Below are positions 3,626 through 33,850 of a stretch of DNA of 64,000 bases, piece by piece. Made by a program: the position numbers and the translations under genes. Positions within the stretch are counted from its first letter, which is position 1; each line of letters starts with the position of its first letter. Source of the DNA: Botryllus schlosseri (lineage: Eukaryota); contig CM119371.1 in the NCBI GenBank assembly GCA_051294905.1, positions 1,180,001 to 1,244,000 of the forward strand. Reading direction: 5' to 3'. The notes under the pieces were generated by a model, which saw only the letters and a program-made list of their open reading frames with translations, was not told where the DNA came from and did not search any database.

Positions 3626-4022
3626 CTGGAAGAGACCAAATCGGAAGAAAAAATTATTGTTGTAAGCCGGGTTAAAATTTTAAACTTAATCTGCGGCGTA
3701 TTAATTCTGGTTCTAAATTTCGGGCAGTAAAGGATATCTTTACTCGAGATGCTAAGCAATATTTCCTCGAAGCTGCGCACGTGCGCAATTGCGCAGAAAA
3801 TCTAAGTTGCCGCACAAAAAATCCGATGTGATGATCTTTTTTTCAGTCGGTACGCACTGCTGTCCGCGAAATTATGACCCAGAATGGATTGCTACGAAAA
3901 GATGTGAATATTGCACCATATCATATCTGAAGAGGGGAGGCTTCAAAATGAGATAAATTCCAGAATAACAAACGATATATAGTTTTCCTACGAAATGAAT
4001 CATTTGAAAAAGTATAACTCAC

Positions 4023-4336
4023 TCGTATTCGATTTTCCAGACACCTTGCAATGATGCCCAAAAGCTCGTCGTCGATACTGCAGTAGCTTAAATTCAAAGA
4101 AGGAAGGCTTTGATTCCTTGCTGCGAGCGATCCAACGATATGAGCTTCATCGCGATTTAATGAGATGTTAGATGTGTCGATGACGGAGAGATCTTTAATA
4201 AGATTGTCGTCGCCAGATTCGTAGATTGCTGTATATAGTTCCATGCGAACGAATCTGTCTTCGTATTCAGTCTTATCATGAAGTTGTGAACGGATCGATT
4301 GATATAAAGCTTGTTGCTTCTGTGTTTGATCCGAGA
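4023..4336 (-). CDS. NLR/NACHT gene exon 4 (helical domain plus RI-like LRR)
   Basis: Acceptor gtgacAG (phase 1), donor GTGAGT (phase 0); encodes 'ELYTAIYES' and LRR-like 'LPSLNLSYCSIDDELLGII'. Confidence 0.8.
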
Positions 4337-4544
4337 CTGTCACGCAATACACAATGTCAATGTCATTGTCGTTGTCATTGTACCGGTATTCGTAATGTTT
4401 GCCTAATCGTATACGTAACAATGAATAATTCACGCGACTGTGATGAGGCAGGGTTCAGATGGAGTCATTGAGCTCAAATGTCTAGTTTACAATAACAAGA
4501 GCATTTCATGCGCATCAATATCGTATGTTCGACTAACATCGGCT

Positions 4545-4743
4545 CCAGAATTCATACCTAAGTGTTGGAGGTTTATTTAGGCTCACCCTCCGGAAGCTAT
4601 ATCTTTCAAAGAGCTTAGAAGTGGGCCGTGCTACAAGTCGGCGGATGCGAAATCAAAAATACAAAATATCGGCCTGGCGTAAATGACACCTTTAGTCGAC
4701 AGACACCATAAATACACGAAACAAACAATCAAACAAACAAACA
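4545..4743 (+). repeat. SINE-like interspersed repeat with (AAAC)n-type tail
   Basis: Shares gggccgtgctacaagtcggc and downstream sequence with ~42085-42290; ends in aaacaaacaatcaaacaaacaa. Confidence 0.45.
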
Positions 4744-5006
4744 ATGTCACATAGTGATCATCGATGAGCCCTGGTAGCGCTCACGATCAATAACCTGTGA
4801 AGTTATGCACATTTTAGATACATAAGTTTTATTTAGCCGTCTGAATGTAAAGACTTATTTACCGGCCGTGTATGAATTTAAGATCTTTCGACTATTTCAC
4901 CCCTTCGATTGTGACGATACCATCAAATTCATGATAAACTATAAGCGACCCATAATAATCAATCGGTGCTGTGGCAGAATAGCCGCGGAAAACCATGATT
5001 ACTCAC

Positions 5007-6446
5007 CGCTGTGAAGATCGTTATTAGATTTCATGTAAACGATGCCTGTAACGAATCTTCGAACCACGGACCATCGTTTCTCATGTAGATGTTGGCCATC
5101 AAAGCGAATGAACATTTCGAGCTCCATTTCTGAGATAAAACTAGCTGCCAGAAATTCTTGCATACTTTGATGACAGAAGAAGAATGTGAAGTCGCCTTCC
5201 ATCAAGCGACGGCTGAGGATGTTAGTGTCGGGAACTTTTGTCATCAAATCTTGTACTTCGTCCGCGGAAAGTTCAAAGTGATCTAGGTCCGTCTTGTAGA
5301 ATACGACTCGCCCCTCTTTCATGCCTTCAAACGCCATTGCCTTCAATTTGTGGATAATCGAGAGGATTTCCTTATACTTTCGGATATTTTCCACACTCCG
5401 TAAGACTAACAGGATCCTGCTGTAAAGTTCTGTCACGGTAGACGGAGGAGGTTTTTTTGGATCAATTCCCATCACCACTGCTATCAAAATTAGGAAAACC
5501 GGGACCGATAATAGATGTATCAATCGCGGTGACATGATTTCAATCTTCTCCCAGAGATGCTTCCCGTTGTCACAGAGAAGACTAGTGAACAGTTTATAAG
5601 CATCTTGTGGTATGAGACCATTGAGTGTGATTATTTCTTCAGGGCGTGCTGGTGCCGGTAATTCGGAGACTTTGAATTCACGGGACGAGACGATGATCTT
5701 GACGTGACAAAGGATCTTGCGGGATAAGATATTGAACATGATGATCGCAGAGCTCGCTTTTTGATACGGTGTAATTTTTCGGACGCTACACTCCTCAAAA
5801 CCCCATTTCATTTGATCAAGCCCGTCAAAAATGATAGTTGCATCAGTTTGATTCTTGTCCAGCAATTCGAAAGCTTCGTCCTCTTCAGATTCATCTTTGA
5901 AGAGACCGTCGAATAGAAACTTGGCTGTTTTTATACCGTTCTCGTCTTCCTTGTTCTTCAATTCAATGTAATGTATCATTTTTGGTTTCGGTTCACCGGT
6001 TTCTTTCACAGAGAAACTTCGTACCGCGTTTTGAGCAATTCTACGCATGAGAGTAGTTTTGCCAGATCCTGCAGACGCGACGATAGCAGTGTAACCAATT
6101 TTATCATTAGGAGGTAATTTCTCAGACTTTATCACCGATTCCATTATCTCTTCCATTGTTATTGTTCTACTGTTATTGTCGGATTGATGGTAAAACCCTA
6201 CTTCCTCGATCAATTGACTTTGAAAGCCTTTCCTTCCATATCCGCTAACAGCTTTGACATTTGAAGATTTCTTTTCGCGAAAACGCCCTTTGTAGTAGTC
6301 ATCAACACTGACTTTTTTCATCAGCGGGAAAACTTCAAAGTCTGGTTCGCGAAGAATTTCATTTTTGAAGTCTTCTCGAATTCCACTTGCCGTTTCTTGT
6401 CGAGTGTTGTCGTTTATAACCTGAATCAATCTACTGGGATCAACAC
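5007..6446 (-). CDS. NLR/NACHT gene exon 3 (NACHT NTPase plus winged helix)
   Basis: Walker A ASAGSGKTT, Walker B IIFDGLDQ, sensor-1 IIVSSR, 'SVPVFL', winged-helix FCHQSMQEFLAA; acceptor ttttttgcAG, donor GTGAGT, phase 1-1; 1440 nt open. Confidence 0.93.
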
Positions 6447-6515
6447 CTGCAAAAAAGAGAGCTTGAATTAGGAAATATCTCGAGAGTGCTATATCGAGCG
6501 GTAGGCTATATATCT

Positions 6516-6723
6516 TGTCGTGTTGTGCCGGATTCGCTATAGCGTATCACGTGAGCGCTGTCATGCCCCATGGGCCATGAGCGATCATGGTGCTGCCTGC
6601 GCAGTAATCATTCATTTATGCATCTGACCTTACTTAGTGAGGATCGCTAGTTTATTGTGTCAGCGCTAGTCGGGATATTGTTAATAAAAGCCTACCATAA
6701 GCTCATTGGTCTGGTTCATCACA
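6516..6723 (+). repeat. 5' LTR
   Basis: tgtcgtg...catcaca; contains AATAAA; near-identical to 12594-12801. Confidence 0.95.
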
Positions 6724-6766
6724 ATTTTATTAACAATATCCCGACTAGCGCGCACACAAGAAACGG

Positions 6767-9700
6767 ATGGCGTCTGCCGAAGAGAGATTGTATCATGTTC
6801 CGACTCTCAAAGTTTTGCCGAGTGCTCCGGGAGCTGAACTGGTGTTCAAGCATTGGAAAGATATGCTTGTTAGTTTTATCAAAGCCGCGGACGATCGCCG
6901 TCGTCAGTCTTCTGCGTCAACATCGTCTACGCCCGGCTCTGAGCAAGGTCCGCCTCAACAGTCGGGCAGCCCGAAAAGGCGATCGAGGTCCTAGAGCAGT
7001 GTTTCTCAACCCCGAGTCCGCGGACTCAAATGAGTCCGCGGAAGGTCCTTGGTGAGTCCGCGAACACAGGAATTTTCAGTAACTTAATCGGCTCGGCACG
7101 CTTTTTCTTCCACTTCCGATATGATTTCGGATCATGTAATTGACAGACCTACGGGGCTCGTTCACTTTCGGACCAAAGTCATTGCAGCCTTACGGAGAAA
7201 ATAGCTTTTTGGTCCGAAAGTGAATGAGCCCCGTCCCGGTGCGGTTTCGTCAAATTCCGATTTGAGAATTAGGCCGAGTGATTTGCAAAATACCTATTTT
7301 GAAATGTTAGTAACCTTAATAGCTGTCATAAAAAATGCATAGATACCTCAAATATGTGACTGGCGGCACTCAACTTCAATAGTGCTTTCAGAACTACATT
7401 CATTGCAGTAGAATTTATTACCTCGGTGACTTTTCGGGTTTCCCTTATCAAGAATTAACGGCACCATAAAAAGGATAAAGAGTTTTTATACAATCTTTCA
7501 ATATTCCGCTGATTGTATAATTTGATTCTCTAATATCTCTTTATTATGACTACCGGAGTACCGGTACAGCTGACTTTGGCCAGCTACCGATCCTTTTTCT
7601 CATTGCATTGTTACGTCACATTTTGCCAATTTGAATTTTGTTTGAATCTCTTTCTATATGCTTCTTATTGTGCCGTTACCTCTTGTTGATAAGAGGCATA
7701 CGAAATTCCTGCAAGTTAATAAATTATACTGCAGTGAATGTAGTTTTAAAAGCAATATTAGAGATACCTCAATAGGCGATGTTTGGCCACGTATATTTCA
7801 AATGCAAGAACAACGAAACAGCACCACTACAAATTAATCAGCATTCCAAGCATTATTGGTTCTCCTGAGATTTTCTGTGTCTTGGGCAAACCAGTTGGTT
7901 GCAAGTATCACAGGCAAAACGGGTATGCTTTGCACATCTGTCGCATCATCCTGGTTTGATACCAATCACGCCAGGTAAAAAACCCCTATTATCGCCAACT
8001 GGAATTTTTCAAAATGCCCTACATTTATGTTCGAGGTGGCCTATTGCTAAAATTGTCATAAGCAATTCTATCACGGTCATAAACTCTACAATTTTGGTCG
8101 GATTGACATGAATTTAGTACGAATGGACTCGGAATTTAATGCAGCGTGTTCGCTATTAACAATTCACATACAGAATATCCCAGGTATAAACCCCTGGGAC
8201 AGCTCTTTATACACACGGTTGCGGGACCGTAACTGCCGTACACCAAACCCCCATAATTGAGGGGGGACCTCGAAGGGAGCCAAAACTATTCGTGAATTGA
8301 CATAAATTATAGAGTGTTTTTTTTTTTAATTTATGCAACTTTTTATAAAAATTATATCATTATATCATATTCCGAAACGTCTCACTCAGCTCGACCGATA
8401 AATCTGAATGCATGAGCAGATATGGCATAAAAAATTTACAGCTATATATATATAGATGCAATCCCCGATCCTGTTGACCGATTCAATCATGAATTATGGA
8501 ATATTTTCGCGCCTCGCGCGGTTTATTCGAAACAAAACGACTGAATGAACGGTACAAAAATTTCGCTGAGAAGTGGCGGTAAAAAGGTATCGGAAGGGGG
8601 GGGCTGGGGGTAAAGCCCACCGGAAGTTGGGTTTATGGCCTGTGTGGCCCTAGACCAACGTTTTGTTATTGAGAGGGGCTGACGAAGTGCTGTTATGGTC
8701 CTGCACGTAAGCACATTGCACAGGTTTCCGGCGCGATATACGATGAGTGCTGGTAATTGATTATGGCGACTTGTTAACTTACAGATTATTTGGAAAATTA
8801 CAAATCGTGGGGACATGTGCTAATCACAGAAACAATCTATAGTTGTCTAATATAAGTGGAACTCGAGATGTAGACTGCATTACTGAATAGTTGCTTGAAT
8901 TGCAAAGCCGACAGATGTGGAAAGACAGATTTCAGAAAGCTTCCTTGACTCAATTTTAGCTCATTTTTTTGTTGATACCGTATTACACTCTCCTGGATAG
9001 AAAAAAAAAAAATTTTTCTGTAATATATAGCTTGAGTCCGCGGGTATACTGGCGAGCTTGAGATGAGTCCGCGGGTAAAAAAGGTTGAGAACCACTGTCC
9101 TAGAGGGACTGTATTTGGTGAAGAGAAATATCATATATGCTCGACATACAATCTCCACGAGCACTCAGCAGCCAGGAGAAAACGTCATGGAGTTTTTCCA
9201 GAGACTGTTGTCACTTGCGAAGAATTGCAGGTTCGAGGCCGTGTCAGCTGAGGATCACCGTAAGCAATCTATCAGAGATGCGTTAATTGCTGGCTTGTCG
9301 TCCAATGCAATACGATTACATTTGCTGGAGTTTGATCAGCTGACTCTTGATAAAGCTGTTCAAGTTGCAGATTCACTGGAGAGAGCGCAGAAATGTTCCG
9401 CGATATACATGAATCCTTCAATCGAAGCCGATGATGGCTGGAAGGTTAGTCAGGCCACATCCTCCGAGTCGCAGTCACGATACGAAGAGGACTCTGATGG
9501 ACATTCCTTAGCCGTCTCGCGGAGAAGTGGGAACCGAAACCCGTTGTCGAAGGCAAAGAAATGTTCTAGTTGTGGAAACCGACACGGGCGGGTCTGGAAA
9601 TGTCCAGCAAGGAATGCTGTCTGTTTCAACTGTGGAGTAAAAGGACACTTTGACAAGATGTGCTTGAATTCTATTCAATCCGACGAAGAGTCCGATGAAT

Positions 9701-9879
9701 TAGCAGCCATGATTGCTTCAATTCCTGCCTCACTTTCGAAAGCGGCAGTGTTCATTGCTATTAAGCGAAAGAAGTTTGATGGATTGTTGGACAGCGGAGC
9801 CTCAGACAATTATTTGAGTCTTGAGATAGTGCGGGGGCTGAAACTCAAATGGTTTGGTAAAAAAAAAGCATCAAGTTAG
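6767..9879 (+). pseudogene. gag: gag-protease, interrupted by a hAT insertion and frameshifted
   Basis: N-terminal 'VFKHWK'; removing the insert restores EKAIEVLEGLYLVKRNIIYARH in a different frame from the ATG; zinc knuckles CSSCGNRH..C and CFNCGVKGHFDKMC; aspartic protease LLDSGAS. Confidence 0.85.
6997..9097. mobile_element. Non-autonomous hAT (Charlie-like) DNA transposon, 2.1 kb, inserted in gag
   Basis: TIRs cagtgtttctcaacc / ggttgagaaccactg; perfect 8-bp TSD tcctagag (6989-6996, 9098-9105); subterminal gagtccgcg repeats; no transposase ORF. Confidence 0.93.
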
Positions 9880-9911
9880 CAGATAAAGGAAAGCGATCAA
9901 CTGTTCACGGA

Positions 9912-12509
9912 ATGCTATATCTGTCATTTGAGCTGAACGGGCGGAAGTATTCTGATGTAGTGTTCGGTGTTATCGAGTACTTATGCGCTGATGTGGTCTT
10001 AGGCCAATCATTTATGAAAAAGCACCGTAAAGTATTTGAATTAGGGGGACCTTTGAACCCCCTTGTTATTCCTGGACGAGACGAGGAACACACTTGCAAC
10101 TTGACTGCAGCAAATGTGGGCACCCCGCCAAGAATATTTCAATTTCTCGATGGGTCGTGTAAACCTATCGCAACTCCATCTAGATCGTATAGTGCTCCGG
10201 ATCGAGAGTTCATCAAGAAGGAGATATCTCGATTGAAAAATGAAAGGATAATCGAGGATTCTAACTCCCCGTGGAGAGCACAGGTGCTAGTCACTGGTGG
10301 ACGACGTCACAAGCAACGCCTGGTCATTGATTATTCCCAAACGATTAATCAATTTACCTTTCTAGATGCGTACCCATTGCCGAAGATTGCAGATGTCGTG
10401 AACGAGGTCGCTAAAGGCAAAGTGTTTAGCTCTATCGACTTGAAGTCGGCGTACCATCAGGTTCCGTTGGAACGAGCTGACAGGCCATTCACTGCATTCG
10501 AGGCCTGCGGGTCACTCTATCAGTTTCGTAGGTTACCCTTTGGCGTCACTAATGGGGTTAGTGCTTTTCAGAGATTTATCGATTCGTTCATCGAAAAGAA
10601 TGCGCTTGAAGGAGCAGTCGCATACTTGGCCGACATTACCATCTACGGCTAGGATCAGAAGGAACATGACGAACGTTTGAAGTCCTTCATGTCAGCAGCG
10701 AAGTCCGCCAATCTGACGATCAACTCCGAGAAATCGACATTTTCTGTAGAAGAGTTAAAGCTCCTTGGGCATCGAATAAGAAGAGGTGAGATCATGCCTG
10801 ACCCTGAGCATTTGAAGCCGCTTATGGAACTGCCACCTCCGAAGAGTGCAAAAGCTTTGAAGAGCTGCCTAGGCCTCTTTGCATAGCCTACTATTCTAAA
10901 TGGATTCCGAGATTTTCCGAGCATGCGAAACCTTTGTTCCATAACGAAAATTTTCCTCTTGAAGGATTGGTTGTCGAAGCCTTCGATAAGTTGAAGAGAT
11001 GTCTCCGTCGCGCTTGTTTAGGTTGCATTTTGGAAGAGGAACCATTTTCCGTCGAGACCGATGCTTCTGATACCACCACAGCTGCTATCCTGAGCCAGCG
11101 TGGAAGACCGGTAGCCTTCCTTCACGAACTCTCATCAAGTCCGAGGCGAAGTATCCGGCCGTGGAAAAAGAAGCGTGTGCAATTATCAGGGCGGTGAGAA
11201 AATGGGGCTATTACTACACGGTAGACGATTCAAAATAATAACCGACCAACAAGCTCTTTCATTAATATTTGACAAGCAGCACAAAAGTAAGATCAAAAAC
11301 ACCAAGCTGGCTCTGTGGCGATTGGAGTTGAGTGAATATACCTACGATATCGAACATAGACCAGGTTTGGAAAATGCAGAAGCTGATGCCTTCACCAGAC
11401 TATGTTCGGCCACTAGTGATTATGGCCTGAGTTTGGAAGAACTTCACGTCTCTTTGGGTCACCCGGGTATTCGCAGACTAATGCATTTTGTACGTTCGAA
11501 AAATCTTCCTTTTTCAGTCGAAGAAGTGAAGAGACAATGCAACCGCTGTAAAGAGTGCGCTGAAATAAAGCCGAAATTCTACAAACCTCCGGCCACGCCG
11601 TTGATCAAAGTGACCAGACCTTGGGAAAGATTGAGCGTGGATTTCAAGGGACCTGTGGACGGGAAAAGGCGGTACCTTCTCATCATGGTTGATGAGTATA
11701 GTCGTTTCCCTTTTGTATTTCCTTGTTCGGATATGCGAGCGTCAACCGTTATTTCACAATTTGTGACGCTGTTCAGCATAATGGGACTTCCCGAATACGT
11801 CCACAGTGACCGATCTCAGTCTTTCATTGGAAACGAAGTGTCACAATTTGTGAAGGAGAAAGGAATCGCGACGAGTCGAACCACGCCCTACCACCCGACT
11901 GGTAACTCCCAATGCGAGCGCGTAAACCAGACAATATGGCGTACAATCAAGCTCATGCTTGCTTCTCGCGGTCTGCCCGACAGCAGTTGGGAGAAAGTAC
12001 TTCCCGATGCATTACACTCGATTCGTTCGTTGTTATGTACCGCTACTAACGAGACTCCGCATTCCAGGTTATTCAAGTTTCCTCGTAAATCAAGCATGGG
12101 CACATCTATGCCTGATTGGCTCTTGGACGGTGGAACTGTGCTCTTGCGACGACATGTCCGACGAAAAGATGAACCTATCTGCGAGCCGGTTGAACTCCTC
12201 GAAGCCAACCCTCAATACTCGTTGATCGAATATCCAGATGGACGACAAACAACCGTATCGAAAAAAGATTTGGCTCGATACCCATCAGAGTCGGATATCG
12301 TCGATACAACTCCTATTCAAACCACGAGTGTTGGCCCCGATGATGACGCTACTGATGACATTAACGTCGAGGAGTCCACTCCCGAGATGGAGACGAGCAG
12401 CGGGACGAACGTCGGAACTGAAGAAGAACTGCGGGCATCTGAACCCCCTGAAGTGCCGTTGAGACGCTCAACTCGTATCAGAAAGGCGCCGGACAGATTT
12501 CAGTACTGA
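9912..12509 (+). pseudogene. pol: pol (RT, RNase H, integrase), disrupted
   Basis: RT motifs SPWRAQV, RLVIDY, IDLKSAYHQ, LPFG; catalytic YxDD reads YLAD, followed by an in-frame TAG at 10650; RNase H VETDAS; integrase HHCC and DDE (SVDF, HSD, QCER); frameshifts between segments. Confidence 0.92.
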
Positions 12510-12593
12510 GTTGAATTATTTTGTAGTGCTATATTTAGTATTTCACGTTGCATTTCATTGTGATATGTCACCCTAATTTTCAGAGGGGGAGAT

Positions 12594-12801
12594 TGTCGTG
12601 TTTTACTGGATTCGCTATAGCGTATCACGTGAGCGCTGTCATGCCCCATGGGCCATGAGCGATCATGGTGCTGCCTGCGCAGTAATCAGTCATTTATGCA
12701 TCTGACCTTACTTAGTGAGGATCGCTAGTTTATTGTGTCAGCGCTAGTCGGGATATTGTTAATAAAAGCCTACCATAAGCTCATTGGTCTGGTTCATCAC
12801 A
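12594..12801 (+). repeat. 3' LTR
   Basis: Directly follows the PPT; followed by TSD tatct. Confidence 0.95.
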
Positions 12802-20900: not shown

Positions 20901-22374
20901 TTTACTAGGCTAGCCTACTTTATGAAATTGTTAGGTTGTTGTAAAAACAAATCAGAGCAAAAGTTGGAAAAAAATCGACACAAAAACAACAAATCCAATT
21001 TATTTCTGGTACTCAGCCTATGAATACTTTCCGGTTCCCTCAATTTTGGCAATAAGGCATAGTCGTTTGTGACATTGTTGACACAAAATGTCACTATAAA
21101 TTTAATAGCGTACATCAGTCAAGTTGCTCGAAACTGATCCAACTATTAGGATATGTCTGTGGAAGTCGAACATGCACCAGAAAAATTACGACATACCGGT
21201 GGGTATCCTCATATGTAGCAAGGCCAAGACGTTACAAAGAATGTCAAACATTCAAATATTATCAATGTGATAGCCATTAATACATTTTTAATACAAAATC
21301 CTACAAGTGTCGAGTTTACTGGTTATCATGTTTGCAATAACAGTCAAGAAGGCATATAGGGGTGGTCAAACAATTTGTTGGAAAGCACTGTCTCCTCTAA
21401 TTTTTCACGAGTGTGCGAGCACTCATCAACTCACTGCACGGTCCCTTGGACAACAGTGCGTAACAGCTAAAAAAATGTCGTCACTTTGGATTTTATTCGC
21501 GCAGCGTATAGATTTTTCTGTGTGCAGATACCGTGTCAGCACTGCACAATTGCCGCATGTGCGGTTGTGCGCAGCTTAGAGGGAACATTGTTGGAAAGCA
21601 TTTTTAAACCAGCAATTCATCATGTTTCATGGCAACTGTAAATAAATTCAATGCCTTGTCTACAGAAAGTACTGTTGAAAGTCAGCAACTATAACCAAAT
21701 TACGATAAGAGCAATTTCGAGCTTCCGTGGAAGACCAATTCAATTTTCGTGTAGAAAAACGACAAATCCTACTAAAAAAGAGGACACATCGTAGTACTAT
21801 TTAAAACAGAAATATCATGTAGTCTTTACCGTCTGCTGTGTAACCTCGACAACAAACTAAACTTCATACCAGTAAATTCTGTCTATGCTATTACTCCTAT
21901 ACCACTACCCTTGCGTCAGGAAGTCAGTCAGTCAGACTGTAGCGTCAGCGTGGGGAACGGGGATCAGCTCGTCGACTAAAGTATCATTCAGATCTTTACC
22001 TTAAGAGTCATTGAGAAATCTATGTACCTTTACTATCTCCTCTGCATGGTACCGCTATAGCTGGTGAAGTTGTAAGTACTTAAAACCAATTTTTATAATT
22101 CGCACGCAGGACCACAGCTGATTAGTACTGCTGTCATCTGGGCCGAATACTTGTATGAAATTTCCAAAGCGGAAAAAAGATATGACCTACCATTACCATT
22201 TTTAACGAACTACCTCCGGGAGGATGAGTTAATACCTTTTCTGGATTCAATAGTGGTATAAATTACATACGAATATGAGATAACTTATTTCCAGATGCAT
22301 AAGTACCGATAAATGTCCACCAAAATTTCTGTGATGTGATCGCATTCGCAACAATACACCATTGCTTCGATCAA

Positions 22375-25300
22375 TTCGACCCTGTCAATATATCTTATCA
22401 GTAGGGTAACTTATACTTTGTTCCGGAAGATAAGTTATACCTTTTCTGAATCTAATAGTCATCCATCTTACACCCACACTAGAGACAACTCATTTCAAGG
22501 TACACAAGTTACTCTAAAATCCACCTAAATATGTCGTATAATCGCTACAAAGGTCAATTAACATTCGTTTCACACAACTCGACCATGCCAATATATATTA
22601 TCGGTAGGGTAACTTATACTTTGTTCCGGAAGATAAGTTATACCTTTTCTGAATCTAATAGTCATCTATTTTACACCCAGACTAGAGACAACTAATTTCG
22701 AGATACACATAAGTTACTCTAAAATCCACCCAAATATGTCGTAATATCGCTACAAAGGCCATTTAACATTCATTTTACGCAATTGGTCCATGCCAATATA
22801 TGTTATCAGTAGGGTAACTTAAACTTTGTTCCGGGAGATTAATTACACCTTTTCTGAATTTAATAGTTATCTATGTTACACCCAGACTAGAGACAACTCA
22901 TTTTGAGGTACACAAGTTACTCGAAAATCCACCTAAATATGTCGTATTATCGATACAAAGGCCAATTAACATTCGTTTCACGCAACTCGACCATGCCAAT
23001 ATATGTTATCATTAAGGTGACATAAACATTGTTCCGGGAGATGAATTATGCCTTTTCTGAATCTAATAGTCATCTATGTTACACCCAGACTAGAGACAAC
23101 TCATTTCCAGGTACACAAGTTACTCTAAAATCCACCTAAATATGTCGTATTATCGCTACAAAGGTCAATTAACATTCGTTTCACACAACTCGACCATGCC
23201 AATATATATTATCGGTAGGGTAACTTATACTTTGTTCCGGAAGATAAGTTATACCTTTTCTGAATCTAATAGTCATCTATTTTACACCCAGACTAGAGAC
23301 AACTCATTTCGAGATACACAAGTTACTCTAAAATCCACCCAAATATGTCGTAATATCGCTACAAAGGCCAATTAACATTCATTTTACGCAATTTGTCCAT
23401 GCCAATATATGTTATCAGTAGGGTAACTTAAACTTTGTTCCGGGAGATTAATTACACCTTTTCTGAATTTAATAGTCATCTATGTTACACCCAGACTAGA
23501 GACAACTCATTTTGAGGTACACAAGTTACTCTAAAATCCACCTAAATATGTCGTATTATCGATACAAAGGCCAATTAACATTCGTTTCACGCAACTCGAC
23601 CATGCCAATATATGTTATCGGTAGGGTGACTTAAACTTTGTTCCGGGAGATGAATTATGCCTTTTCTGAATTTAATAGTTATCTATGTTACACCCAGACT
23701 AGAGACAACTCATTTTGAGGTACACAAGTTACTCTAAAATCCACCTAAATATGTCGTATTATCGCTACAAAGGTCAATTAACATTCGTTTCACACAACTC
23801 GACCATGCCAATATATATTATCGGTAGGGTAACTTATACTTTGTTCCGGAAGATAAGTTATACCTTTTCTGAATCTAATAGTCATCTATTTTACACCCAG
23901 ACTAGAGACAACTCATTTCGAGATACACAAGTTACTCTAAAATCCACCCAAATGTGTCGTAATATCGCTACAAAGGCCTATTAACATTCATTTTACGCAA
24001 TTTGTCCATGCCAATATATGTTATCAGTAGGGTAACTTAAACTTTGTTCCGGGAGATTAATTACACCTTTTCTGAATTTAATAGTCATCTATGTTACACC
24101 CAGACTAGAGACAACTCATTTTGAGGTACACAAGTTACTCTAAAATCCACCTAAATATGTCGTATTATCGATACAAAGGCCAATTAACATTCGTTTCACG
24201 CAACTCGACCATGCCAATATATGTTATCGGTAGGGTGACTTAAACTTTGTTCCGGGAGATGAATTATGCCTTTTCTGAATCTAATAGTCATCTATGTTAC
24301 ACCCAGACTAGAGACAACTCATTTCGAGGTACACAAGTTACTCTAAAATCCACCTAAATATGTCGTATAATCGCTACAGACGCCAATTCACATTCGTTTC
24401 ACGCAATTTGTCCATGCCAATACATGTTATCGGTAGGGTAACTAAAACTTTGTTCCGGGAGATGAATTATACCTTTTCTGAATCTAATAGTCATCTATTT
24501 TACACCCAGACTATAGACAACTCATTTCGAGGTACACAAGTTACTCTAAAATCCACCTAAATATGTCGTATTATCGCTACAGACGCCAATTCACATTCGT
24601 TTCACGCAACTTGACCATGCCAATATATGTTATCGGTAGGGTAACTTAAACTTTGTTCCGGGAGATTAATTATACCTTTTCTGAATCTGATAGTCATCTA
24701 TTTTACACCCAAACTAGATCGAACTTATATCAAGGTACACAGGTAACCATAAAATCCAACTGAATACGTCGGATCTGATCGCATTTTGCGACAACGCACA
24801 ATCGCTTCACACGATTTGACGATATCAATATATCTCATCGGTAGGGTGACTTATACGTTGTTCCGGAAGATGAGTTATACCTTTTCTGAATCTCAAAGTC
24901 GTCTACTTTACACCCAAACTGGACAGAACGTGTTTTAAGGTACACAAGTCACCCTAAAATCCAACTGAATACGTCGGATCTGATCGCTACAAAGGGCAAT
25001 GCACAATCGCTTCACGCAATTTTACTATGTGAATATATCCTATCGGTAGGGTGACTTATACTTTATTCCGAAAGATAAGTTATACCTATTCTAAATCTAG
25101 TACCCATATATTTTACGCCCGAACTGCGGACAAGTCATTTCGAGGTACACAACCCTTTGCTGCAAAATTCAACTAAATAAGTGTGATATGATCGCATTTC
25201 GCGACACACAAACCACAATTGCTTCGCTCATTTGACCATGTCAATATATCTTATCGGTAGGGTAACTTATGCCTTGTTCCGGAAGATAAGTTATACCTTT

Positions 25301-26130
25301 ACTGAATCTAATAGTCGTCTATTTTACACCCAGACTAGAGACAAGGTATTTCGAGGTACACAAGTAACCCTAAAACCCACCTAAATATGTCGGATCTGAT
25401 CGCCTTAGAGGGCAATTCACAGCGTTTCATGCAATTTGACCATATCTACATATCTTATCGGTAGGGTAAATTTAACTTTGTTCCGGAATATGATTTATAC
25501 CTTTTCTGAATCTCATAGTCGTCTACTTTACACCCAAACTGGAGGCAACTTATTTTAAGGTACACAAGTAACCCTAAAACCAACCTAAATATGTCGGATC
25601 TGATCGCCCCAGAGGGCCATTCACAGCGTTTCATGCAATTTGACCATATCTACATATCTTATCGGTAGGGTAAGTTTAACTTTGTTCCGGAATATGATTT
25701 ATACCTTTTCTGAATCTAATAGTCATCTATGTTACAACCAGACTGGAGATAACTTATATCGAGGTACACAAATAACTGTAAAATCCACCTAAATACGTCG
25801 GGTCTGATCGCTACAAAGGGCAATTCAGAATCGCTTAACGCAATTTGACCATGTCAATATATCCTATCGGTAGGGTAACTTATACTTTGTTCCGGAAGAT
25901 GAGTTATACCTTTTGTGAATCTCATAGTCGTCTACTTTACACCCAAACGGGAGAGAACTTATTTTGAGGTACACAAGTAACCCTAAAAGCTACCTAAATA
26001 TGTCGGATCTGATCGCCACAGAGGGCAATTCACAGCGTTTCATGCAATTTGACCATATCAACATATCTTATCGGTAGGAAAAGTTTAACTTTGTTCCGGA
26101 AGATGAGTTATACCTTTTCTGATTGCAATC
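22375..26130 (+). repeat. 203-bp tandem array, left arm (~18 units)
   Basis: ttccgg anchor at 22421 and 22624 (period 203); same-type variants recur every 609 bp (23142, 23751, 24360). Confidence 0.95.
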
Positions 26131-26235
26131 GTCATATACTTTCAATAAAAACAATAGTTATGAGTGATGACCGATGTTCAGGTGTGAAAACAATAATTTT
26201 TATTATCAACGAAAATGAAAGAATGATTGATTTTT

Positions 26236-27072
26236 TTACAATAAAGCTGCGTAGAACAATATTTGCCCATTTGCTCTGATGAAATCGAAGGCTTCTTTGA
26301 CGTCCACGAAATGTACCTGATAGTCGTTGAAACATATAGCCCCCCCCCCCCCCCCAAGGCAATTGAACGAGTACGAAATCCAGTGACCACCAGCATCATT
26401 GCAACGTTTATGAGTTATTGCGGATTTCAAAGTATATGTACGCCGTACGGGTACTACCAGCTTGAAGCAATACTTTGATCTTTTCGTCAATTTGAATTGG
26501 CGTAGCGGCTGTTGAGGTGCCAGTTGATTGTCTTGCCAACGAAATGATTAGAACATTAGAGATCGACGTCAAACTAATTCTGGCCAAGTTATTGGCGGAG
26601 TTGCAAACGCTGCAATGTCTGAAATCGATTTCGTTTTTGAAATGGTCCAAAAAAGTTTTTATGCTTGTGCAAGAACTGGGTACTGGGAGCATCATAGATC
26701 TATTCTTCGATTATTCTGCTTATTAATTGAATTACCACAGCTGCAGCATTGAGATTCACGTTCGACGCTCACGAATGGTACGCAGTTGAAACATTCCAAG
26801 GCAGTTGATACGTAAGGAGATGATAGAAACTCTTCAGAATCCAACTGATCGCCATACACGAAATCGCAGAAATCGCATGCTTCTTTAACCGATAAGTCAT
26901 AAAAATCATCAGCAATCTCCTGTCTTGTCATTACCAGCTTCAATAATTCGGCATATTTATTGCCTGGTTTGAACGACATCAACGAATTCGTCTCCTTCAA
27001 AATATGACATAGTGACTGTGTCACAGCATTAAACCAGCATGTATTTCGGGTGTTTTTCAATGCCGGATATGC
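26236..27072 (-). pseudogene. Ubiquitin-specific protease (peptidase C19/USP) domain with two frameshifts
   Basis: Cys box ALKNTRNTCWFNAVTQSL; QLDSEEFL; zinc pairs CCSCG and CSVC; 'NVLIISLAR'; His box YTLKSAITHK..DAGGHWISY; CFNDYQV; GQILFY, spread over three overlapping ORFs. Confidence 0.88.
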
Positions 27073-27124
27073 TTTAGTGAGGACTCCATGCTTTATCAGC
27101 CTTTACCAAACATTTCATTTCGAA

Positions 27125-27412
27125 TTAGAGTCCGTCAATTTTGAATTTCCGGAGAAAAAAACCCTTAAAATTGCTTTTCAACTTCGATACCAAACAACCT
27201 AATAATTTGTGATCAGCCAGGGAGTTTATAATCGCAATTTGGCTATTTGCCTTTGAAAATGAAATGAGTATAAAATGATCTTCCCATATCAGTGGAAACA
27301 GCAACAGGTCGCACACTTCAACGTCATCGTTTTCGAGTCGACGATGAAATTTTTTAAAATCTCATCCGTCAATAATACTCCTGGTGACATCACACGGTAC
27401 TGCGCAATTTTT
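27125..27412 (-). pseudogene. Ulp1/SENP-like (peptidase C48) fragment
   Basis: 'LLTDEILKNF' then 'LLFPLIWEDHFILISF....IAIINSL', matching the L.D..I / P....HW.L / .YDS motifs; frameshifted; the catalytic Q..DCG segment is not seen. Confidence 0.55.
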
Positions 27413-29715
27413 TTATAAATCATATTCCGGAACAAAGTTAAACTTACCCTACCGATAAGATATGTAGATATGGTCAAATTGCATGAAACGCTGTGAATTG
27501 CCCTCTGTGGCGATCCGATCCGACATATTTAACAGGGTTTTAGGGTTACTTGTGTACCTCGAAATAACTTGTCTCTAGTCTGGGTGTAAAATAGATGACT
27601 ATTAAATTCAGAAAAGGTATAATTCATCTCTCGGAACAAAGTTTAAGTTACCCTACCGATAACATATATTGGCATGGACAAATTGCGTGAAACGAATGTG
27701 AATTGGCCTCTGTAGCGATAATACGACATATTTAGGTGGATTTTAGAGTAACTTGTGTACCTCGAAATGAGTTGTCTCTAGTCTGGGTGTAAAATAGATG
27801 ACTATTAGATTCAGAAAAGGTAGAATTCATCTCCCGGAACGAAGTTTAAGTTACCCTACCGATAACATATATTGGCATGGACAGATTGCGTGAAACGAAT
27901 GTGAATTGGCCTCTGTAGCGATAATACGACATATTTAGGTGGATTTTAGAGTAACTTGTGTACCTCGAAATGAGTTGTCTCTAGTCTGGGTGTGAAATAG
28001 ATGACTATTAGATTCAGAAAAGGTATAACTTAGCTCCCGGAACAAAGTTTAAGTTACCCTATCGATAACATATATTGGCACGGAGAAATTGCGTGAAATG
28101 AATGTGAATTTGCCTCTGTAGCGATAATACGACATATTTAGGTGGATTTTAGAGTAACTTGTGTACCTCGAAATGAGTTGTCTATAGTCTGGGTGTAAAA
28201 TAGATGACTATTACATTCAGAAAAGGTATAATTCATTTCTCGGAACAAAGTTTAAGTTACCCTACCGATAACATATATTGGCATGGACAAATTGCGTGAA
28301 ATGAATGTGAATTGGCCTCTGCAGCGATAATACGACATATTTAGGTGGATTTTAGAGTAACTTGTGTACCTCGAAATGAGTTGTCTCTAGTCTGGGTGTG
28401 AAATAGATGACTATTAGATTCAGAAAAGGTATAACTTAGCTCCCGGAACAAATTTTAAGTTACCCTACCGATAACATATATTGGCACGGAGAAATTGCGT
28501 GAAATGAATGTGAATTTGCCTCTGTAGCGATAATACGACATATTTAGGTGGATTTTAGAGTAACTTGTGTACCTCGAAATGAGTTGTCTATAGTCTGGGT
28601 GTAAAATAGATGACTATTACATTCAGAAAAGGTATAATTCATTTCTTGGAACAAAGTTTAAGTTACCCTACCGATAACATATATTGGCATGGACAAATTG
28701 CGTGAAATGAATGTGAATTGGCCTCTGCAGCGATAATACGACATATTTAGGTGGATTTTAGAGTAACTTGTGTACCTCGAAATGAGTTGTCTATAGTCTG
28801 GGTGTAAAATAGATAACTATTAGATTCAGAAAAGGTGTAATTAATCTCCCGGAACAAAGTTTAAGTTACCCTACTGATAACATATATTGGCATGGACAAA
28901 TTGCGTAAAATGAATGTTAATAGGCCTTTGTAGCGATATTACGACATATTTGGGTGGATTTTAGAGTAACTTGTGTACCTCGAAAAGAGTTGTCTCTAGT
29001 CTGGGTGTAAAATAGATGACTATTAGATTCAGAAAAGGTATAATTCATCTCCCGGAACAAAGTTTAAGTTACCCTACCGATAACATATATTGGCATGGAC
29101 AAATTGCGTGAAACGAATGTGAATTGGCCTCTGTAGCGATAATACGACATATTTAGGTGGATTTTTGAGTAACTTGTGTACCTCGAAATGAGTTGTCTAT
29201 AGTCTGGGTGTAAAATAGATAACTATTAGATTCAGAAAAGGTATAATTCATCTCCCGGAACAAAGTTTAAGTTACCCTACCGATAACATATATTGGCATG
29301 GACAAATTGCGTGAAATGAATGTGAATTTGCCTCTGTAGCGATAATACGACATATTTAGGTGGATTTTAGAGTAACTTGTGTACCTCGAAATGAGTTGTC
29401 TATAGTCTGGGTGTAAAATAGATGACTATTAGATTCAGAAAAGGTATAATTCATCTCCCGGAACAAAGTTTAAGTTACCCTACCGATAACATATATTGGT
29501 ATGGTCGAGTTGCGTGAAACGAATGTTAATTGGCCTTTGTAGCGATAATACGACATATTTAGGTGGATTTTGGAGTAACTTGTGTACCTCGAAATAAGCT
29601 GTCTCTAGTTTGGGTGTAACATAGATGACTATTGGATTCAGAAAAGGTATAAGTCATCTCCCGGAACAAAGTTTAAGTTACCCTACCGATAACATATATT
29701 GACAGGGTCAAATTG
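27412..29715 (-). repeat. 203-bp tandem array, right arm, inverted (~11 units)
   Basis: Reverse complement of the left-arm unit (ccggaacaaagtttaagttaccctaccgat). Confidence 0.95.
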
Positions 29716-30870
29716 ATCGAAGCAATGGTGTATTGTTGCGAATGCGATCACATCACAGAAATTTTGGTGGACATTTATTGGTACTTATGCATCTGGAAAT
29801 AAGCTATCTCATATTGGTATGTAATTTATACCACTATTGAATCCAGACAAGGTATTAACTCATCCTCCCGGAGGTAGTTCGTTAAAAACGGTAATGGTAG
29901 GTCATATCTTTTTTCCGCTTTGGAAATTTCATACAAATATTCGGCCCAGATGACAGCAGTCTGATTAGTACATTTACCTAAAATATTTCTAACCACAACA
30001 AACCTAAATTGTCTTGTGCGGCAAGTGCGGTACGATCGGCCATACTTTGTCCACAATGCTAGCAACAACAATATATTTTAACAGTCACAACATAGTGTCT
30101 CATTGGACACTATGGTCACAATAGGTGGGAATACACTAAAATTCCAGTCGTTACAAGTTTGATCGATACCAACGTGGGAACAGGGTCCAACTATCACCCA
30201 ACTGTATTCACCAGTGTACATTCTGATTCATTAACTTTTTGACCCCTTCAACTTTACATGCGCGTAATCGTAAAATCGCTCGGCCTCAGGCAGGGCCCTT
30301 TTAGATTTGTTTAGAGCCCCTTGAGGGACGTAATTTCGTCAGTTTGTTTTAGTGATAGCAATAGAGCATAAATTTCTCGATCAGCTGATCTCACTCCATG
30401 TTTGACACGGGGCAGGACAATCGATATACGTGAAGCATTAGCGCCATCACACAGGAGTGAGACCAGCGACAAATTGATAGCAGTCATCCAGATCGATATT
30501 ATATTTACTTTGTATTCAATTTAGTTATTTTCCAGTGCATAATGTTATTATTGCAGAAGATGCGATGCGAATCATCGACATTTAAAAGAACTATACGGGG
30601 TATTCCCTAAATCGAGTCATGTTTGTTTCTGGAGCCATAGAAAATAGAATCGCGGCAGACATGGATGAGGTGGAGTGGAAATAACTTATTTTTTAGATCG
30701 AAAAAGGGGGTTCTCGAATCCCGACAAATGACCTGAAATTTCAATAAAATTTGACTTCAGATGATTGCCCCCATTTTACAGCTGGTATTTTCCCAATTTT
30801 TGCGCGCGAGGTGGTAAAATTGCCCATCTGCCATCTCAAGAATTACTGGTCGTACAGTCATGATATTTAG

Positions 30871-31282: not shown

Positions 31283-33850
31283 ATATTTAGCTCAAAAGCT
31301 GTCAAAACATCATTTGTCAATCAGTCTTACGAAGAAAGTTTTCTCAATTGTCCAGTGGACAGCAATCTTTTCTAAACAACATACGTGTATACTGTATAGT
31401 ATATTTGTTGATGGTGCAAAACCAAAACATGCAGGCATCGACACTTATGGTGTTGCTTTGACAATCGTCCACTATGAAAGGTTAATACCACCGTGTCGTG
31501 TAACAAGGAAGAGACGAATTTGCCTAGCAATCTTCTCTGTTAGCGTGATGTGCAGTATCGAGCGCATTTATAATAAGAAACTGTCCTGAGTTCTGAGGTA
31601 AGCTACATTAGGATTACATTTGTAAATTCCGATACCTTTCAGCCTATATGGAATCTCGGTTCATTTTTTGAAATAAATCCTTCGTGATGAGAGCTTTTCT
31701 ACATATATTAAATCAAGTAATTAAACAGAAAATCCTGCGTGACATAGCCACCAATTCCATTCTGGCCTTTCAGTGATAACAATGGCTTACTGGCAGACTT
31801 CTGATAACCCACCTTATAAATCACAACAATGTAATCACATGTTTGTGCAATGCAGAGTCACGTTGAAACTATCAACTCTATTTTGACTCTTGTGTTTCTT
31901 GTGAAAGAAATACGACTTCACCGTTTTCTATCTTCCATTGTACTGTCAAATTTCATCGAAATGTCCGGTAGAATTTCGTCAAACCTTATTCGAAAAGTCT
32001 ATCATAGCTTTCACATATTACTGGTCATGTTTTTTCGCAAGATATACACTAACTAATGTAGGCTAGCAATGGCATGATACAGTTTCACACGATCTGTCCA
32101 TGTGCAGTTTTAACTGATTCATATCGCTGAAATTGATGAGAATTTGAGTAGGGGTGCACCATTCTGGTGTTTTCCAGTTCTCTTGCCAGGCAGTTCCAGC
32201 AGGCCGGTCAATATCATTTCCGAGCAGAGTAGTGAAATTCCACGATTCTTCAAGGGCTATCTGGACCATCTCGGCCTTTTTGGATGTTGTCTTGGCAAGG
32301 TCTCATTCTCTTTAGAACGCTGCATCACATTGCATTGCGTCCACATCGTTTTCGGTCTGCAAATAAACGAGGGGTCAACACTATATCGGGTCTATCACAG
32401 CTTGAAAAAAAAATCGGTATTTGCCATTGGAGGTGAAAAATATCGCCAATTTTCATGGCATCGCAACACAGTACAGTACAGGAGTTAGAGAATTATAATT
32501 TACAAAGGCTATACTGAGAATATCGATCTATTTCTTATAGCTTACAAAGTGGTCACGTAGTCATTGTTTGTGCTCAAGTACAAGTATCGTCATACAATCT
32601 CGAGTACAAGCATACCGTAATTTTCCAGGGATGATACACCTCAACGTATAATATGCACCCCTAAAATGGCATGTAAATTCTGGGGAAAAGCCTGCACCCA
32701 GTTTATCAAAGCACTCCTCATAGAATAATTTCTAAAAATCAACGTCAACACAGAACGTAATGACGACAACAGCATGCAATTTGAAAACAAGTATCTGAAC
32801 GTTAATTAACTGAGAAATTTCCTACGGACCCTTTGATATCACTCCAAAACTAACAAGAAATATATGCACATTTGAGCTGGATACCTTGTGATACGGAGAT
32901 AAACAGTGACCTTGGATATATAAAAACCATTTTAAGAAATTCCACAAATTTTACATGCCAATTATCAGACCGCTTCGGTGACGTGTATACCCAATATTAT
33001 ACCCTTTGCGACCCATGTGTTACATAGGGTTACCATACATCCTTTACGAGGATTTGGCCTCATTTTCAAGGTTTTTGAAAATGTCCTACTTTTGGAGATT
33101 TTGTCCCGAGATACTGTAAATCAGCACTGAAATAACGCTTCACCGGCTATTTCGGGAGCTGAGCCAAAAAGTTGACCTTTCTTTGGTCAACCGACCGCTA
33201 AATATTGACTGTATCTTTTAGAGACATCTGGGAGTATAATAGAGTCTCGCCCACACCAAATTTGTAGTCTTTTGAAAAGAAATTCAACAATCAGAATAAA
33301 GTTAGAGCTTGTTAATGGGACTTCGGCTCGCGTAAACTTCAATAAACTCACATGTAACGAGCATGATATCGAAAAGGCACTAGCAGCTGTCTACTTGAAA
33401 TGAGCCTCCGATATTTGATTTCAAGTTGCACACTTGCCTTGAATACAAGTTAGGTTTTTTTTGATGACTGGTCTGGAGTAGGTCAGCACCACAATACTGA
33501 AAAGCTTGTGCCGGATATCGGCCCTCATGTACCAGGTGGAACGAGACCTTACCTGTCGAGATACGAATTTCTCTTGTCCTACTTTTCATTATTTTTCTTC
33601 TTCTGTTGATTGAGAATCCTTTTCATATCATTGCTGCAGTCTGCTTGATGCACTCGAATCTCTTTACCGTTGAGGATTTCGCCTGAAATGGCAGCCACAC
33701 ATTTGTTTACAGACACACTTACGAACTACCAATCTAGTCAGTTGGCGATCAACCAACTACTGATTATGCAGTAGTTCTAGTTGTGGATTTGGAAAAGAGA
33801 GTAGTTCTAGTTCTAGCTCATGTTGTGGATTTCATAAAGTTAGCAGTGCT

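Follow-up and report, generated by a model that had tools for sequence, protein, structure and literature searches.

A probable non-autonomous copy of a Rehavkus-like foldback transposon in Botryllus schlosseri, with relics of a C48-type protease and a ubiquitin-specific protease

The stretch analyzed here (hereafter the window) comprised 64,000 nucleotides of Botryllus schlosseri DNA (GenBank assembly GCA_051294905.1, contig CM119371.1, positions 1,180,001 to 1,244,000, forward strand). It contained a foldback element at 22127–29960, which is most probably a non-autonomous derivative, shortened by internal deletions, of a Rehavkus-like foldback DNA transposon related to Mutator/MuDR. The loop of the element retained, on the minus strand, remnants of a CE-clan protease of C48/Ulp1 type and of a ubiquitin-specific protease (USP, family C19). 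This assignment is carried by the observed structure, domains and breaks of the element, by its multi-copy state and by the architecture of its relatives; the proteases of the window copy are best read as dead passengers, any function lying with the parent element. The coordinates given in an earlier note on this DNA hold, as do the 9-bp target-site duplication (TSD), the long terminal inverted repeats (TIRs) with arrays and the loop of ~1.3 kb that it had described. The features of the element were as follows:

22118–22126, 9-bp TSD, left copy, identical to 29961–29969
22127–22371, plus strand, outer left TIR
22372–26122, plus strand, left arm on the 3′ side of the gene, a 203-bp unit repeated 18.4 times
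26236–27093, minus strand, USP (C19) domain relic with linker, recognized by Pfam, profile and motifs
27094–27104, minus strand, internal deletion junction, with one extra base in the window copy
27104–27403, minus strand, C48/Ulp1-type (CE-clan) protease fragment, covering profile positions 34–133 of 206
27414–29715, minus strand, right arm on the 5′ side of the gene, the 203-bp unit repeated 11.3 times in inverted orientation
29716–29960, minus strand, outer right TIR, matching the left end
29961–29969, 9-bp TSD, right copy, identical to 22118–22126

The two copies of the flanking 9-mer were exact, a match expected by chance at a fixed place with a frequency of ~6e-6. An 11-bp duplication was considered in its stead and rejected, because the two extra matching bases would make the ends asymmetric. 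Between the outermost 250 bp on the left and on the right, 244/250 positions were identical. The outer left TIR (245 bp) was composed of a unique tip of ~90 bp and one degenerate array unit, which had 69–75% identity to other units in a unit-by-unit matrix. The outer units of the left arm formed a three-unit higher-order repeat, 96–100% alike at three-unit spacing, and its inner units, 69–93% alike, are older. The right arm had a two-unit higher-order repeat in part of its length. One right-arm unit was 99% identical to a left-arm unit type, despite the differing higher-order repeats, which suggests sequence exchange between the two arms. A protein-coding open reading frame (ORF) inside the arrays was also considered and rejected, as these held short repeated frames only. 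The loop between the arms was 1,291 bp long and had no second copy within the window. Long TIRs with subterminal tandem arrays and a 9-bp TSD, as found here, are the hallmarks of Rehavkus and of foldback Mutator-like elements (MULEs).

The USP domain was distributed over three minus-strand pieces (26692–27102, 26408–26710, and 26236–26547), each of which stayed under the Pfam cut-off when scanned singly (E 0.0011, no match, and E 0.01, respectively). When stops were read as X, the frame that holds the two catalytic boxes matched Pfam UCH above its cut-off of 23.9 bits, at 32.6 bits (E 7.9e-8). The Cys box had its Cys codon at 27039, the two conserved CxxC pairs were present, and the His box had the His near 26385 and the Asp near 26325, followed by a stop codon at 26238–26236. 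Two frameshifts interrupted this frame, the first being two extra bases near 26694 and the second a 7-base duplication near 26438, so that the window holds no intact open USP frame. Without these two indels the frame is open for ~280 codons and includes all catalytic residues. The earlier note had called the USP near-complete; it had mentioned neither the two frameshifts nor the loss of the catalytic Cys from the C48 fragment. The second frameshift (26438–26451) was a near-tandem duplication of 7 bases and could be the footprint of another, departed element. On its sequence the window USP is thus a relic, and cleavage of ubiquitin by members of the family is a prediction only.

The C48 fragment, placed upstream of the USP as had been proposed, was below the threshold of Pfam Peptidase_C48 (15.2 bits against 20.7, E 0.02). 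A profile built from 9 relatives (described below) recognized it with 31.6 bits, a score reached by 0/2,000 shuffled sequences (maximum 9.9). The His was kept (27277) and an Asn stood at the Asp position, whereas the front helix, the Gln and the catalytic Cys were gone, leaving the triad plus Gln incomplete in the window copy. Stop codons fell at 27364–27362, which varies among other copies, and at 27127–27125. Sequence searches of the PDB with the C48 part matched SENP1 and SENP8 at no better than E 0.028–0.34. The distance from the C48 His to the USP Cys was 79 codons in the window and 134–143 residues in 6/6 relatives; by this difference in spacing, ~58 codons were deleted between the two, among them those of the C48 Gln and catalytic Cys. 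The large deletion that would have taken the transposase has its junction at 27414, the inner edge of the right arm.

A search of 1.84 billion proteins returned 9 matches, among which the top three, and six overall, belonged to one unnamed ENA family; the other three were unrelated USPs. A word-indexed search among longer proteins with a 136-aa piece found nothing (0/128 candidates), and full-length relatives were reached through cluster members and two further protein searches. The full ORFs were 2,334 aa (P0037) and 2,316 aa (P0051) in length, and both had the motif order PHD, D, D, CxxH, E, C48, USP, with one more domain at the C-terminus. P0037, P0051, and P0060 each combined the motifs of a Rehavkus-type DDE, including CxxH, and of a PHD in one ORF. 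The DDE region of the relatives resembled MULE clusters in the ESM Atlas (0.91–0.95), and their motifs at both Asp, CxxH and Glu matched by eye the six Rehavkus DDE sequences from Repbase contained in a published supplement (PMC13359780). Most relatives matched Pfam UCH with 65–89 bits. The best relative for Pfam Peptidase_C48, P0029, reached 20.6 bits against the cut-off of 20.7, and the other relatives scanned gave no match to it. A conserved helical domain occupied the last 170–190 residues after the USP in P0002, P0013, P0026, P0037, and P0051; it had no Pfam match (scanned in P0015), and P0013 keeps it though its USP His box is gone.

Structure comparison was based on a predicted model of P0026, whose mean predicted local distance difference test score (pLDDT) was 42 and better in parts of both proteases; the AlphaFold model of P0023 (pLDDT 30) was unusable and was left out of the structure search. 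Residues 295–476 of P0026 aligned with Ulp1/SENP proteases (Z 10–10.8, root-mean-square deviation [rmsd] ~3, 130–160 aligned residues), including Ulp1 1euv (Z 10.7, rmsd 2.9, 134 aligned), and residues 499–775 aligned with USPs (Z 17.9, rmsd 4.7, 262 aligned; Foldseek E 4e-15). At the level of the model, this confirms that P0026 has both protease folds, CE clan and USP. Proteases of the CE clan acting on SUMO, NEDD8 and ubiquitin lay within 1 Z unit of each other in the comparison with the C48 fold, and the predicted substrate may be any of the three. The USP Cys, His and Asp and both CxxC pairs were invariant in 9/9 sequences, the window reading included. In C48, the His and the Gln were kept in 9/9, the Cys in 8/9 and the Asp in 7/9 (Asn in two); the catalytic set was complete in 6/9 relatives with Asp and in 8/9 when Asn is allowed. 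Since these residues are kept across divergent lineages, with USP identities of 29–54%, the alignment indicates that both protease active sites are under selection in the intact family. The intact relatives thus support the proposal of the earlier note that the element derives from an autonomous one, in so far as they fuse a C48-type and a C19 protease to a transposase; a present function of the window copy or its sub-family found no support.

Within public sequencing runs, the loop or part of it was found in 20/24 runs among the matches listed, from 13 studies and under 5 organism labels, and was compared in detail with contigs of 4 runs. Run X5 (DNA) had 682 contigs on the loop, covering all 30 bins. 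The loop is therefore multi-copy, although copy number is not derivable from the contig count, and the possibility of a one-off capture, which had been raised beforehand, is removed. Run X1 covered ~99% of the loop, with both frameshifts and the deletion as in the window. The frameshifts were common to the window, X1 and most of the X5 depth, and therefore broken copies multiplied after the damage. At the 16 USP variant sites listed, 3 changes were synonymous, 12 replaced a residue and 1 created a stop, with 21% synonymous changes expected at random. Judged from these small numbers, the variation among USP copies looks neutral, an outcome that the earlier note had named as refuting, and both this and the shared frameshifts speak against a present function in the window copy and its sub-family.

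A contig of 1,170 bases from run X12 was without either frameshift and departed from the window sequence at the deletion point. It continued for 124 bases past that point, of which 30 were seen and were open in the USP frame; translated by hand, the extension resembled the linker of the relatives. This contig kept the USP stop and reached the array ~115 bases after it, so the USP seems to be the last domain of the parent that it represents. In three contigs of X5 the sequence went on beyond 27414 into non-array DNA, and the few codons seen there were open in the C48 frame. Less-deleted copies thus exist, in which the transposase part was not seen. None of the listed loop-bearing runs was recorded as RNA, and RNA as the source of X12 is a guess; the raw RNA run X22 yielded 0 reads, a result without weight as evidence. 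Near-identical loop sequence (window 26100–27450) occurred under at least two organism labels (X1 and X5), which may be due to one species carrying different labels, to mixed samples or to cross-species transfer, indistinguishable here.

The family profile matched the loop collinearly, first in C48 and then in the USP, and a profile of 8 relatives built without the window gave the window USP 128 bits, compared with 63 bits for the best other USP. Several observations weigh against descent from a Rehavkus-like fusion. No remnant of a transposase was found in the window, where the ORFs and a family profile search over the whole stretch gave no DDE transposase, so that the window copy itself is not autonomous. 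We infer that the direct parent, itself not seen, carried a transposase in the same ORF; the two undeleted extensions are known from 30 and 26 bases only. The window USP was only 19–26% identical to the relatives in global alignment, little more than the 16–25% of unrelated USPs, and in the tree it lay on a long branch outside the family, beside USPs from rodents and others (support 86/94, drawn open). Most relatives have the further C-terminal domain, while the parent of the window copy appears to end after the USP. The relatives are known as protein sequences only, with the TIRs and TSDs around them unverified. Their Pfam matches to MULE (E 0.041), PHD (7.5e-5, and 7.5e-5 to 2e-3 among the relatives) and C48 (4.2e-4) were all below cut-off, and P0051 scanned whole gave no Pfam UCH match. 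The placement of the window USP outside the family in the tree was without firm support, and the window is best read, on these comparisons, as a distant sister lineage sharing the C48 and USP domain pair.

It is improbable that the C48–USP loop stems from a different mobile element, such as a Helitron-like element of the HLE2 type, and was picked up between unrelated foldback arms. Both UCH and Peptidase_C48 are among the domains of Helitron-like elements (PMC11417382), the window USP is distant from the ENA proteins and outside their family in the tree, and no piece of transposase directly connects the loop to the arms. However, the nearest proteins were all Rehavkus-type fusions with the same order and spacing of C48 and USP, the frame-intact X12 contig enters the array shortly past the USP stop, so that an intact USP adjoins the arm, and the TSD and arm type fit a Rehavkus-type family.

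Capture by a Pack-MULE of a host gene or retrocopy with C48-like and USP parts is very improbable. The search of 1.84 billion representatives found no close cellular USP, its best match having an E of 2e-7 and 31% identity, and tandem fusions of SENPs with USPs are not known among cellular proteins, which also counts against capture. In the relatives, moreover, the C48 and USP pair has a transposase in the same ORF. The points in favor of capture are the loose position of the window USP among non-family USPs in the tree and the host fragments that are common in non-autonomous MULEs (PMC5499845). Production of a functional USP by the non-autonomous family, as a helper or a domesticated deubiquitinase, which would explain the spread of this family, is hardly credible: the ~280 codons that are open but for the two indels, with all catalytic residues, and the sole long contig of X12, frame-intact and from RNA by guess only, are set against the 3/16 synonymous variant sites and the stop at one of them, the multiplication of copies after inactivation, and the status of the X12 contig as an undeleted form outside the deleted family.

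The deleted Rehavkus-like copy can be compared with several known groups of transposons. Rehavkus elements of Repbase have a 9-bp TSD, TIRs that are a few hundred bp long and carry tandem arrays in subterminal position, a length of 5–18 kb and one ORF with a PHD (PMC6446971, PMC12581902). They are placed in or beside the MULE/MuDR superfamily, with Rehavkus-1_HR, -1_TC, -3_TC, -1_DY, -2_NVi, and 1_AP as examples. The window element is like these in its 9-bp TSD, long TIR and subterminal arrays, and the relatives have a similar DDE by eye; unlike Rehavkus, the window copy has no transposase. Accessible descriptions of Rehavkus contained no protease, although Repbase Reports may mention some, whereas in the relatives a CE-clan protease and a USP follow the transposase. 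Among type 2 foldback MULEs, Muta1 and Muta1NA1 of Aedes and Tm1 of Meloidogyne have composite TIRs and an 8–9-bp TSD (PMC5499845, PMC3169594), and share with the window element the unequal repeat numbers at the two ends. Their units are of 12–14 bp compared with 203 bp here, and they have no protease domains. Foldback MULEs with unequal arms include non-autonomous derivatives that are mobilized in trans, and both the binding of transposase and excision are enhanced by subterminal repeats (PMC5499845).

Each of the added domains is already known singly from other transposons. Ulp1 and PHD occur on Mutator and Ginger transposases, and Ginger1 occurs with Ulp1, OTU or PHD (PMC2836005). Ulp1-bearing Mutator elements include Kaonashi/Vandal of Arabidopsis and MuDR of Hydra and lancelet (PMC2836005, PMC13317346), and the Ulp1 domain of MULEs and Kaonashi is described as having no known function (PMC13317346). 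Like the relatives, the Ulp1-bearing Mutator and Ginger1 elements have C48 on a DDE transposon, sometimes with a PHD; unlike them, they have a single protease and are without a USP. Kaonashi has it as a separate gene in non-TIR elements, and Ginger elements differ in their 4-bp TSDs and in an integrase resembling that of Gypsy. Identity of the window element with Ginger was considered and rejected, Ginger having a 4-bp TSD and TGT ends. A C19 cargo had seemed much less familiar to the earlier note, yet precedents exist in a Trichomonas IS5-like transposase with Peptidase C19 (PMC2836005) and in the UCH of HLE2 Helitrons (PMC11417382), and the deubiquitinase activity of the VTD domains of zebrafish Helitrons has been proven (PMC9741609). 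As in the relatives, these transposons with C19/UCH or VTD/OTU have a deubiquitinase fused to a transposase, but they are of other classes, and a tandem of CE-clan protease and USP on a Mutator-type foldback element is not described in the accessible parts of these sources. Searches of the openly accessible literature found no description of a Mutator-type transposase with both C48 and USP, although subscription journals, Repbase Reports or bioRxiv supplements may hold one; the accessible part of a review of giant transposons makes no mention of Ulp1 or Rehavkus (PMC6431247).

In the proposed history, the parent would have been an element with one long intron-less ORF, encoding a PHD finger, a DDE transposase, a CE-clan (Ulp1-like) protease and a USP, and ending beside the 3′ arm. 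A large deletion, starting at the 5′ arm and reaching into the C48 domain, would have removed all sequence between them, and another the catalytic half of C48. The remnant, still with both arms, would then have been moved in trans by intact transposase, by cut and paste with 9-bp duplication, the 203-bp arrays most likely serving as transposase binding sites. It would have multiplied while the protease relic decayed.

As to the function of the proteases in the parent, the reading favored, tentatively and at somewhat short of even chances, is that its transposase and PHD would tether them to its own arrays and transpososome, where SUMO and ubiquitin would be stripped from local silencing factors and from the transposase. 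It is favored because the proteases would be tethered to a DNA-binding transposase with a PHD, and because SUMO is central to piRNA silencing; SUMO is needed for transposon silencing guided by PIWI-interacting RNAs (piRNAs) in Drosophila (PMC10363806). The anti-silencing role put forward in the earlier note is likewise a hypothesis. That the proteases purely protect the transposase from the proteasome is possible but doubtful, that they steer break repair is unlikely, and that they self-process the polyprotein is more unlikely still.

Elsewhere in the window, a Gypsy-type long terminal repeat (LTR) retrotransposon was found at 6515–12801, with direct repeats of 209 bp that were 98% identical (6515–6723 and 12593–12801). 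It had a gag zinc knuckle and ORFs for reverse transcriptase and integrase with frameshifts, and was located at the start of a NACHT ORF. Pieces of an NLR-type gene (3921–6546, minus strand) comprised NACHT and winged helix domains (Pfam E 1e-14), with a frame resembling leucine-rich repeats downstream. Many short dispersed repeats with palindromic micro-arrays at 33000–57300 are probably several families of miniature inverted-repeat transposable elements. An Rfam scan of the window gave no family match, and a scan for bacterial promoters, irrelevant here, was at chance level. In viral contigs, weak matches to the USP (E 6e-5 to 8e-4) turned up at 5 loci, 3 of which were used, as outgroups in the tree only. 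In JGI metagenomes, 0/593 stretches were confirmed with the transposase alignment and the TIR tip gave 0 matches.

Why many transposons carry proteases of the ubiquitin and SUMO type is an open question, and only the Helitron VTD is reported to have been assayed (PMC9741609). The PHD, the Rehavkus-type transposase and the two protease clans of the relatives are compact enough to be assayed directly, and their catalytic residues persist between lineages only ~30% identical. The window locus is a dead relic, yet it flags another, highly divergent lineage that shares this domain pair, as well as a frame-intact copy still present in public data. We regard it as rather doubtful that an active autonomous parent exists in the host and is transcribed, with the undeleted X12 contig as its trace, its polyprotein acting as a self-targeted eraser: the transposase would bind the 203-bp arrays, the PHD would read the chromatin, and two active isopeptidases of different clans would take SUMO and ubiquitin marks of the silencing machinery off the copies of the element, those like the window copy profiting in trans. 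If true, such an eraser would parallel, in an animal, the VANC system by which plant transposons counter silencing.

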